Positions 1 through 1,541 of a stretch of DNA of 3,599 nt are shown here, piece by piece; positions within the stretch are counted from its first letter, which is position 1, and each line of letters begins with the position of its first letter. The notes under the pieces were generated by a model that did not search any database, was not told the DNA's origin, and saw only the letters and a list, made by a program, of their open reading frames with translations. The position numbers and the translations under genes are program-made. Source of the DNA: a virus (taxonomy: Duplodnaviria > Heunggongvirae > Uroviricota > Caudoviricetes); the IMG/VR virus record IMGVR_UViG_2698536484_000040; one strand, 5' to 3'.

Positions 1-654
1 ATGGGACGCTGGCTTGCTGGCAGGCTCATGAAAGAGCTGGGGCTGGTCAGCTGTCAGCAGCCGACTCACCGGTATAAACGTGGTGGTCATGAACATGTTG
101 CTATCCCTAACTACCTTGAACGGCAGTTCGCCGTGACCGAGCCAAATCAGGTGTGGTGCGGTGATGTGACCTATATCTGGACGGGTAAGCGCTGGGCGTA
201 CCTCGCCGTTGTTCTCGACCTGTTCGCAAGAAAACCAGTGGGCTGGGCCATGTCGTTCTCGCCGGACAGCAGGCTCACCATGAAAGCGCTGGAAATGGCA
301 TGGGAAACCCGTGGTAAACCCGGCGGGGTGATGTTCCACAGCGATCAGGGTAGTCATTATACGAGCAGGCAGTTCCGGCAGTTATTGTGGCGATACCAGA
401 TCACGCAGAGTATGAGCCGGCGCGGAAACTGCTGGGATAACAGCCCAATGGAACGCTTCTTCAGGAGTCTGAAGAACGAATGGATGCCGGTGGTGGGTTA
501 CGTAAGCTTCAGCGAGGCAGCTCACGCCATAACGGACTATATCGTTGGATATTACAGCGCACTAAGACCGCACGAATATAATGGTGGGTTACCCCCAAAC
601 GAATCGGAAAATCGATACTGGAAAAACTCTAACGCGGTGGCCAGTTTTTGTTGA
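1..654 (+). CDS. IS3-family transposase OrfB (integrase-core, DDE catalytic domain), 5'-partial; the ATG at base 1 is a window artefact and the reading frame continues upstream
   Basis: The translation carries the retroviral-integrase-like core: first Asp in WCGDVTYIW, second Asp in [12 protein letters not shown], Glu in [14 protein letters not shown], and a C-terminal [13 protein letters not shown] tail typical of IS3/IS911 OrfB. Stop TGA at 652-654 lies inside the terminal inverted repeat. Confidence 0.9.
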
Positions 655-662
655 CCACTTCA
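627..662 (+). repeat. Right terminal inverted repeat (IRR) of the IS911-like element
   Basis: The sequence ends ...ggtggccagtttttgttgaccacttca with a terminal CA. The left boundary of the IR is approximate. The left IR is outside the window, so the pairing cannot be confirmed here. Confidence 0.7.
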
Positions 663-663
663 T

Positions 664-786
664 GGGAATAAGCAGGTTGAATGCGATTACATGTTATCTG
701 CATTAAGGCGCATGGAGTTGAGAGGGCACCTTAATGAAATATATGACGGTGTGATTGTTAATAAGAAAGAAGGAAACGCGGCATGA
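664..786 (+). pseudogene. Possible 3' remnant of a prophage gene truncated by the IS insertion (open frame from the IS boundary to TGA 784-786)
   Basis: The frame is open from immediately after the IS end (...NKQVECDYMLSALRRMELRGHLNEIYDGVIVNKKEGNAA*). Its stop overlaps the ATG of the next gene in an ATGA arrangement (ATG 783-785, TGA 784-786), the usual coupling geometry in phage operons. There is no recognisable domain, and it could be non-coding leader. Confidence 0.25.
718..745 (+). promoter_or_regulatory. Candidate sigma70-like promoter upstream of the 783 gene (TTGAGA, 16-bp spacer, TATATG)
   Basis: Hexamers read by eye: -35-like TTGAGA at 718-723 and -10-like TATATG at 740-745. The -10 is imperfect (G at position 6). 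Purely a sequence-pattern guess. Confidence 0.2.
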
Positions 787-1541
787 TCACTATTACCAAA
801 GGGCGACTGCTGACAATCAAGCAGTGGCGCGAAACATACGGACCGGGTAGCAACGTTGTACTGCCAGCAGAAGAAGCGGAAGAACTGGCACGAATTGCAC
901 TGGTATCGCTGGAAGCAGAGCCGATGGCAAAGATTATAGCTCATTACCCATTAGGAGTTGACGTAGGCAAACAAAAGTTCGTACAGGCCATTGGAGAGCT
1001 TCCTGACTTTGGCGGATATCTATTTGCCGCCCCGCCAGCGCCGGTAGTGCCGGAAGAAGCAACTCCGGAAAACGTAGAAATGCTCTCTGGCTATGTTTCC
1101 ACGTACAAATTAACCGATAGCGAGCGCGATATTGCTGCCGAAATATGGAACGCCTGCCGCACCGCCATGCTTCAGTCCGGAAACTTTCGGGAAAGCAAGA
1201 ATTCGTCAACCAATAATTTTCGGGAAATCCCGGAAGCGTCAACCAGCTCTCCGGTAACTCCGGCTCTTCTGCCTGGTGGTTTCACCATTGAGGAGGCGAA
1301 GGAATTACATGAAGACCTGGTACGCAGCCACATAAGCAAGGCCTTAAGTGGCGAAAAGATGAAAAAGAAAGATCGCGATGCTGATTTGCGCTGGATTCAT
1401 GGCGTTATAGTTCAGGCAGCGTGGTTTGTAAAAGCATCACTGGAGCAGAATGCACTATCGGGCAACTCTCCGGTAACTCCGGATGGTTGGATAAGCTGTA
1501 GTGAGCGAATGCCGGACGACAGGCAGGAGGTGAATCAATGA
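783..1541 (+). CDS. Uncharacterised prophage early-region protein (252 aa) with a Pro/Ser/Thr-rich repetitive linker; its C-terminus stops right after a GWISCSERMPDD motif that resembles the start of a DUF551-type domain
   Basis: ATG at 783 is preceded by a GAAGGA Shine-Dalgarno (769-774, 8-nt spacing). The ORF is long and co-directional with xis-int. Internal in-frame direct repeats are present (see repeat features). Stop TGA 1539-1541 overlaps the ATG of the next ORF. The DUF551 resemblance is from memory of the WI...LP(E/D) motif, not a search. Confidence 0.75.
   Translation: MITITKGRLLTIKQWRETYGPGSNVVLPAEEAEELARIALVSLEAEPMAKIIAHYPLGVDVGKQKFVQAIGELPDFGGYLFAAPPAPVVPEEATPENVEMLSGYVSTYKLTDSERDIAAEIWNACRTAMLQSGNFRESKNSSTNNFREIPEASTSSPVTPALLPGGFTIEEAKELHEDLVRSHISKALSGEKMKKKDRDADLRWIHGVIVQAAWFVKASLEQNALSGNSPVTPDGWISCSERMPDDRQEVNQ
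1247..1263 (+). repeat. Copy 1 of a perfect 17-bp direct repeat ctctccggtaactccgg inside the 783-1541 CDS (encodes SSPVTP)
   Basis: Exact string match with 1466-1482, read directly from the sequence. The copies are 219 bp apart (73 codons), in the same frame. Confidence 0.95.
1466..1482 (+). repeat. Copy 2 of the perfect 17-bp direct repeat ctctccggtaactccgg (encodes NSPVTP)
   Basis: Exact string match with 1247-1263. The shorter core aactccgg also occurs at 1061-1068 (encoding ATPE). Confidence 0.95.

Follow-up and report, generated by a model that had tools for sequence, protein, structure and literature searches.

An IS911 copy in the accessory part of the early-left operon of a lambdoid prophage at mlrA of Escherichia coli

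IS911 normally inserts with a short target duplication, and deletions associated with insertion sequences (ISs) occur in prophages of enterohaemorrhagic and enteropathogenic Escherichia coli, as with IS629 in O157 prophages. In Shigella phage Sf6, an intact IS911 disrupts one accessory nin gene and the phage is viable; phage SfII also carries IS911 (PMC5630979). The right inverted repeat (IRR) of the element is 36 bp long (PMC1636345). It holds an outward-facing –35 hexamer, which pairs with a –10 in the left inverted repeat (IRL) once a circle forms, and promoters formed jointly by an IS and its flank are well known (PMC9330008). The yehV (mlrA) locus, for its part, is a documented and classical integration site of Shiga toxin (Stx) prophages (PMC8309913).

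Here we describe an IS911 copy in a 3,599-nt stretch of tailed-phage DNA (IMG/VR record IMGVR_UViG_2698536484_000040), called the window below and numbered from its first nucleotide. The element sits among non-essential accessory genes of the early-left (cI-side) operon in a lambdoid prophage of ∼51 kb, at mlrA of E. coli. As in Sf6, which is P22-like, an intact IS thus lies in a dispensable accessory region of a lambdoid phage and disrupts one accessory gene. Our favoured reading, to which we give a probability of roughly 0.78, is that a full-length IS911 and an associated deletion of ∼2 kb, of single origin, are carried in an operon that is read through the element, with the IS as a passenger in a viable temperate phage.

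The IS911 copy and the phage DNA it replaces

Longer public contigs with the window were obtained by exact-protein look-up of the 252-aa open reading frame (ORF) at 783–1541. The entire window is an exact substring of contigs L005, L006 and L007 (9219–12817), and of L011. Carriers of the element include the NCTC strains of assemblies GCA_900449225 and GCA_900448385, and its full contigs include UGBW01000003, UGAF01000006 and JZXK01000009. Its first 662 nt are the 3' part of a full-length element (IS positions 588–1249), which ends ...CCACTTCA at 662. The full copy, L006 8632–9880, is 1249 bp long. It shows 98.3% identity over 1249/1249 nt to the element annotated as 'insertion sequence:IS911' in Sf6 (AF547987), 98.1% over all 1249 nt to the SfII copy, and 98.8% to a RefSeq-annotated IS911 that RefSeq marks 'programmed frameshift'. 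The IRL, at L006 8632, reads TGAAGTGGCACACTGAATTTGGCCACC..., and the reverse complement of the IRR reads TGAAGTGGTCAACAAAAACTGGCCACC...; the terminal 8 nt of the two (TGAAGTGG) are identical, they share an internal GGCCACC block, and the TG...CA ends are present. At 36 bp the IRR spans 627–662 (+ strand) and closes with CA-3' at 662, the last bases reading ...TTGACCACTTCA (also given as ...GTTTTTGTTGACCACTTCA). A scan of the window against Rfam gave no match.

Bases 1–654 (+ strand) encode the C-terminal 217 codons of the transposase gene orfB, including the DDE/rve domain (Pfam integrase core PF00665, E = 2.7e-32, plus rve_3 and rve_2). The ATG at window position 1 is an internal orfB codon chosen by the gene caller, and the 217-aa 'protein' is a fragment. 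The transposase (OrfAB) starts 515 nt upstream of the window, at L006 8704. There, orfA (100 aa, 8704–9006) is overlapped in the –1 frame by orfB, open from 8949 to 9872, and an A AAA AAG (A6G) slippery site lies at 8955. A fused 389-aa transposase is called in L006 and L007, and the genuine product is this OrfAB frameshift fusion. The orfB frame of IS911 is translated only via frameshifting, which here concerns ∼870 nt. With IRL, IRR, orfA, the A6G site and an open orfB all intact, the copy is full-length and, judged from its sequence, apparently active.

The right boundary of the element is sharp. In all best BLAST matches, among 5,426 complete E. coli genomes together with phage genomes, homology to related prophages starts exactly at 663. 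Such agreement is far beyond chance, so the boundary is real and not a chance resemblance. From 663 to 3599 the window shows 99.97% identity (one mismatch) to the prophage of O55:H7 strain RM12579 (L001, NC_017656.1) and about 99% (28 mismatches) to PhiR5_1, rising to 99.9% for 663–2320 alone. The RM12579 prophage, which is IS-free at this position, was mapped in full: it is a complete lambdoid prophage of ∼51 kb at mlrA.

Comparison with IS-free relatives defined what the element replaces. L006 955–8631 corresponds to positions 1–7683 of the IS-free contig L008 at 99.86% identity, and L006 from 9881 to its end corresponds to L008 from 9881 to its end. The IS stands in place of L008 7684–9880 (2197 bp). 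The segment replaced is 2191 bp in RM12579 (L001 3810–6000) and 1506 bp in L009 (8375–9880), another IS-free relative, which has fewer Ea22 genes. In all, 1.5–2.2 kb of prophage DNA has been lost and seven genes are gone or cut short. On the left, an 82-aa winged-helix ORF (MarR-like, phrog_1687) is broken after codon 61, and the first IS triplet, TGA, serves as its stop. On the right, a 171-aa ORF is broken after codon 131, with residues 132–171 kept. Missing between the cuts are a DUF4752 gene, a 104-aa gene and one to three Ead/Ea22-like genes.

Around the element the sequence runs ...CTGCCGTTT/IS/TGGGAATAAG..., with TTT and TGG as the adjoining triplets (...CCGTTT/IS/TGGGAA...), and the string across the right junction is GTTGACCACTTCA/TGGGAATAAG. 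No target-site duplication (a short direct repeat of 3–4 bp) is present on the two flanks in the IS-spanning contigs L004–L007. Because the flanking triplets differ and lie 1.5–2.2 kb apart in IS-free relatives, a secondary deletion is indicated. The missing duplication belongs to the insertion event and not to the element as such. From these junctions we infer an IS911-associated deletion. It could have arisen by recombination between two co-oriented IS911 copies sitting at both sites, or by intramolecular transposition from one copy at either site. The intermediates of a two-step course would read ...GCCATTTAC(TGG)/TGAAGTGGCAC and CCACTTCA/(TTT)GGATACAGC. Whichever route applied, the event probably happened once, since the carriers (L004–L007 and L011) share one and the same IS sequence (100% identity) and the same junctions. 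We considered whether the lost target sequence (CCATTTAC) resembles the IS tip (CCACTTCA) closely enough to be a targeting signal; with only 5/8 matches, the likeness was judged not significant.

A preliminary description, made from the window alone, had recognised an IS911-like insertion, and the identity to the Sf6 element bears this out. Its coordinates for the IS right end, for TTGACC (651–656), for the TTGAGA/TATATG hexamers (718–745) and for the overlap of the ATG at 783 with a stop codon were all correct. It had also proposed that a gene upstream of the cassette was truncated. This proved right, the stretch after 662 aligning in intact homologous prophages with the interrupted 171-aa ORF and not with a native intergenic region. 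The picture of an insertion at the head of the cassette needs amending: the IS does cut a phage gene, but the event was not simple, 1.5–2.2 kb having been replaced with no target-site duplication. Likewise, upstream contigs show the expected IRL flanked by prophage DNA, but the DNA there does not supply the missing half of the cut gene.

Operon context and spread of the IS-bearing prophage

The gene order around the element, all co-oriented, is cI-like repressor, helix–turn–helix (HTH) gene, small ORFs, IS, 252-aa gene, DUF4222 gene, xis and int. The cI-type repressor is a 229-aa HTH_3/Peptidase_S24 gene, and the divergent cro-like gene encodes 96 aa. Repeats of ATCAAGT/ACTTGAT type occur at L006 5482–5548, in the cI–cro intergenic region, and at 6367–6405. 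These repeats, found on the two sides of cI, are putative operators and would place the likely early-left promoter ∼2.2 kb upstream of the IS. The element therefore lies between a probable early-left promoter and xis–int, as the preliminary description had supposed. The first small ORF after the HTH gene (92 aa) matches only PHROGs of unknown function.

Beyond the IS, the 252-aa gene, the DUF4222 gene, xis and int are untouched and keep their own ribosome-binding sites. The excisionase gene xis (2025–2279, + strand; DUF1233, Pfam PF06806, E = 2e-29) is intact, with zero amino acid differences from PhiR5_1, RM12579 and L008. The tyrosine integrase gene int (2313–3599, + strand; Pfam Arm-DNA-bind_2 and Phage_integrase) is intact as well; its product matches that of RM12579 and L008 exactly, and nine residues set it apart from PhiR5_1 Int. 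mlrA begins 20 nt past the int stop, and the prophage end lies 0–37 nt beyond that stop. A scan found no + strand terminator-like hairpin inside the IS. Because the element is co-oriented with the operon and has no such hairpin, read-through across it is plausible. The downstream genes would then most likely be read from the phage early-left promoter, and weak read-out from the promoter of the IS itself would add to this.

To ask how the IS-bearing prophage is distributed, we turn to the chromosome beside it. Among all carriers, the 2937-nt phage arm shows 0–1 mismatch. The 7.9 kb of chromosome beyond int, however, falls into four haplotypes: one shared by L004 and L006, one by L005, L011 and L013, and one each in L007 and L012. 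These differ by 174–353 mismatches per 7.9 kb, spread along the whole flank, and in every comparison the first mismatch comes 37 to 89 nt past the int stop. The IS-free contig L009 shares its flank with the IS-bearing L005, L011 and L013. The same IS-bearing prophage thus stands beside at least four haplotypes, which argues for lysogenisation after the IS event. Most likely, the IS-bearing phage has kept excising, packaging and integrating, and on these comparisons a loss of excision competence is unlikely.

The flank shared by L004 and L006 has features of its own. Along 12838–14900 (mlrA–yohO–yehW) it is ∼6–10% diverged from the other E. coli flanks over the first ∼2 kb and then ∼99% identical, and its best match over 7.9 kb in the complete genomes is only 97.7–97.8%. 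This flank may be an imported segment or come from an unsampled lineage.

Simple insertion, new promoters and polarity

The plainest alternative is a simple IS911 insertion into the 171-aa gene, with a 3-bp duplication, the 5' part of the gene just beyond the IRL and nothing else lost. It would agree with the remnant at 664–786, which is in frame and identical to the 3' end of that gene, and with the short duplication that IS911 usually makes. A spacer of 3–4 bp is also mentioned for the element (PMC9330008). Yet upstream sequence has already refuted it: left of the IRL, all four IS-spanning contigs have codon 61 of another gene, that gene lies 1.5–2.2 kb upstream in IS-free relatives, and the flanking triplets are TTT and TGG. 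Nor is a mis-joined assembly across the IS likely, given that three long-read NCTC contigs of 5.0–5.4 Mb share identical junctions. Next to no credence is left for a simple insertion. A second alternative, raised in the preliminary description, is that the IS makes a new promoter, either from the IRR –35 and a –10 in the flank or from the local TTGAGA/TATATG pair, and so frees the cassette and xis–int from phage control. The IRR does carry an outward –35, as had been stated there: TTGACC at 651–656 (+ strand) is the documented –35 of the IS911 junction promoter, pjunc, and hybrid promoters of this kind are well known (PMC9330008). When the ends of the present copy are joined with a 3-nt spacer, CACACT falls 17 nt after TTGACC. 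In the flank, by contrast, the hexamers 16–18 nt past TTGACC (CAGGTT, AGGTTG and GGTTGA) match TATAAT at 2, 0 and 1 of 6 positions, respectively, and the sole 4/6 hexamer, TTGAAT, requires a 20-nt spacer and lacks A2. Judged by consensus, the IS-borne –35 lacks a –10 at 16–18 nt and no hybrid promoter arises, and a promoter of this kind probably does not drive the 252-aa gene, DUF4222, xis or int. The local pair, TTGAGA (718–723) and TATATG (740–745) on the + strand with a 16-nt spacer, satisfies 9/12 consensus positions, but it lacks the near-invariant T at –10 position 6 and was absent from our consensus scan. It lies within the remnant coding sequence and is unchanged in phages without the IS, as an internal stretch of the 171-aa ORF; we judged it a chance resemblance. 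Both promoter-like motifs are present as strings, but at no more than chance level. The scan found no + strand promoter-like site in the whole window; its three sites were all on the – strand, below the 4.6 ± 2.4 seen in shuffled sequences. Moreover, constitutive xis–int expression would destabilise lysogeny, yet the prophage is stable in at least 10 contigs. A new promoter, IS-derived or local, is accordingly hard to credit and we consider it very improbable.

Somewhat less remote, though still unlikely, is a polar block. Early-left transcripts would end in IS911 orfB through Rho, xis–int would be uncoupled from induction, the prophage would be locked in, and the genotype would have reached its several backgrounds through recombination of the IS allele or of chromosomal segments, not through phage infection. 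In its favour, the IS stands between the putative early-left promoter (pL) and xis–int, orfB is translated only by frameshifting and the A6G site is present, and an independent IS911-linked deletion in a related mlrA prophage of an O121 strain (L003, NZ_CP119441) shows that these prophages do decay in this way. But the IS is co-oriented and has no + strand intrinsic terminator-like site, the divergence of the four haplotypes starts 37–89 nt past the int stop, a pattern expected of site-specific integration but not of recombination with random end-points, and the IS-carrying Sf6 and SfII are viable phages. Packaging size is no problem either, the deletion exceeding the IS in length. With xis and int intact and at least four haplotypes, the uncoupling of the operon and the altered excision competence suggested in the preliminary description look unlikely. 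Our favoured reading, an IS911-associated deletion of single origin carried by a phage that reads through the element and still moves, has points that weigh against it as well. Rho-dependent polarity in the poorly translated orfB could possibly act on xis–int if the phage is without N-type antitermination. Homologous recombination between near-identical resident prophages, and not lysogeny, could have passed on the IS allele. The flank comparison of the carriers covers only the int side of the prophage. The exact 30-nt junction had no match in GTDB species-representative genomes, IMG/VR viral contigs or JGI metagenome contigs, and the IS/phage junction was absent from the 5,426 complete E. coli genomes. 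In those genomes there was also no simple IS911 insertion at either deletion end-point, chimeric queries being covered to ≤56%; with no such intermediate among them, the deletion may have had either a one-step or a two-step origin.

An extension of the favoured reading concerns the element itself. The phage may be a vehicle for IS911, given that the IS lies in sense orientation in the early-left operon and that the genotype has entered no fewer than four E. coli backgrounds. Induction would transcribe orfA/orfAB from pL, a burst of transposase would be tied to the lytic/lysogenic switch, and the IS would spread to the new host; weak IS read-out would add a low, repressor-independent level of xis–int expression. 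We regard this scheme as speculative and doubtful.

The interrupted gene, its neighbours and described systems

The 3' remnant at 663–786 (+ strand) retains residues 132–171 and the stop of the 171-aa gene, window 664–786 being identical to the last 40 codons and stop of the intact ORF. The 516-nt ORF is open in five IS-free relatives (PhiR5_1, RM12579, L008, L009 and L010). It is identical among the first three and has one nucleotide mismatch each in L009 and L010. The intact form lies at L008 9489–10004, L002 5609–6124 and L001 5609–6124 (NC_017656.1 2691326–2691841). We considered whether the gene was already decaying in RM12579, where RefSeq flags it as 'frameshifted' and only 5609–5787 is annotated. 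There, however, the full ORF is uninterrupted and shows 100% identity to its PhiR5_1 counterpart, and the flag was set aside as an annotation artefact.

Pfam, NCBIfam and PADLOC held no match for the 171-aa protein, and PDB sequences none of significance (best E = 0.26). The protein falls in phrog_9263/631, of unknown function, and its homologues, 308 matches in enterobacterial prophages, are all named hypothetical. An AF2 model (pLDDT 86, pTM 0.80) gave 3dnx as the top Foldseek match against the PDB (E = 5.3e-6, TM 0.57/0.65), with weaker matches (E ≥ 0.01) to Hjc resolvases, R.BspD6I, HincII and R2 endonuclease domains. E37, D40, E53 and K55, which make up an acidic/lysine signature of D...(D/E)xK type in the family, are invariant in 29 aligned homologues (58–87% identity to the first sequence). 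On the strength of the model, which has an alpha/beta core of restriction-endonuclease type, we are confident in assigning a PD-(D/E)xK nuclease-like fold. The window remnant cannot function, because the catalytic core is deleted and only C-terminal helices are kept. Related PD-(D/E)xK-fold proteins are widespread in enterobacterial prophages, and this unannotated family could deserve a description of its own.

The first intact gene past the IS is the 252-aa accessory gene at 783–1541 (+ strand), identified from the ORF list, Pfam, PHROG and the PhiR5_1 and RM12579 annotation as Ea22-like with the start of a DUF551 domain. It has its own Shine–Dalgarno sequence, GAAGGA at 769–774. Its ATG at 783 overlaps the TGA at 784–786 that closes frame 1, open from 655 to 786. 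The C-terminus (residues 235–250; window 1487–1538) matches only the first 16 of the 68 positions of the DUF551 model, which suggests a mosaic or truncated gene of Ea22/DUF551 type. An unlisted 27-aa ORF follows at 1538–1621 (+ strand; MSWPDAIVTLGVVFAAAFVVFSICRWG), its ATG overlapping the stop of the 252-aa gene (ATGA) and preceded by a strong AGGAGG at 1525–1530. Its product is highly hydrophobic, perhaps a small membrane peptide. At the corresponding position, the O121 prophage is annotated with a 123-nt hypothetical ORF (L003 7153–7275). The DUF4222 gene (1626–1868, + strand; ORF list, Pfam and annotation) and a 44-aa ORF (1872–2006, + strand; ORF list and annotation) come before xis.

Beyond annotation, the locus matters little: the 217-aa 'gene' is a transposase fragment, 663–786 is a remnant, ∼2 kb of accessory genes are gone, and xis and int are intact. 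Yet one IS911-bearing genotype occupies mlrA in chromosomes of several backgrounds, so a Stx-phage-like lambdoid prophage need not be immobilised by an IS in its early-left accessory region. Consistent with Sf6 and SfII, such phages can bring IS911 from one E. coli lineage to another.

Set beside described systems, the locus shares its element with Sf6 and SfII, down to the TG...CA ends, orfA/orfB and the A6G frameshift site. The setting differs. In Sf6 the IS lies in the nin region and is reported opposite to the late genes, whereas here it lies in the early-left (ea/b-like) region upstream of xis–int and is co-oriented with the surrounding operon; unlike Sf6, it comes with a 1.5–2.2 kb deletion and no target duplication. 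A closer parallel in that respect is the O121 mlrA prophage L003, where, at the same integration site, an IS3-family element has likewise taken the place of some of the early region, with genes truncated on both sides and no clean duplication. That IS911 copy reflects an independent event (15/1249 differences, other junctions): its left junction is in a 182-aa HTH gene and its right one in another Ea22/DUF551-type gene, and the deletion is larger, most of the early-left operon being gone. L003 also bears an unusual scar: the IRL tip is duplicated in tandem over 13 bp (TGAAGTGGCACAC, 5401–5413), directly before its IS911 (5414–6662).

As in the IS911 pjunc and in IS-activated resistance genes, the IRR –35, TTGACC, faces downstream genes; unlike the hybrid-promoter cases, a partner –10 at workable spacing is absent from the flank. 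The phage itself resembles other lambdoid prophages at yehV/mlrA (the Stx1 prophages of Sp15/CP-933V type, the stx-less RM12579 prophage and PhiR5_1), which have the same int/xis module beside mlrA. In its relatives RM12579 and PhiR5_1, the 171-aa gene and the Ea22 cluster are intact and there is no IS at this position. Taken together with Sf6, SfII and L003, the event is an ordinary one and well known in kind: an IS has entered a dispensable region of a phage, and a deletion goes with it.

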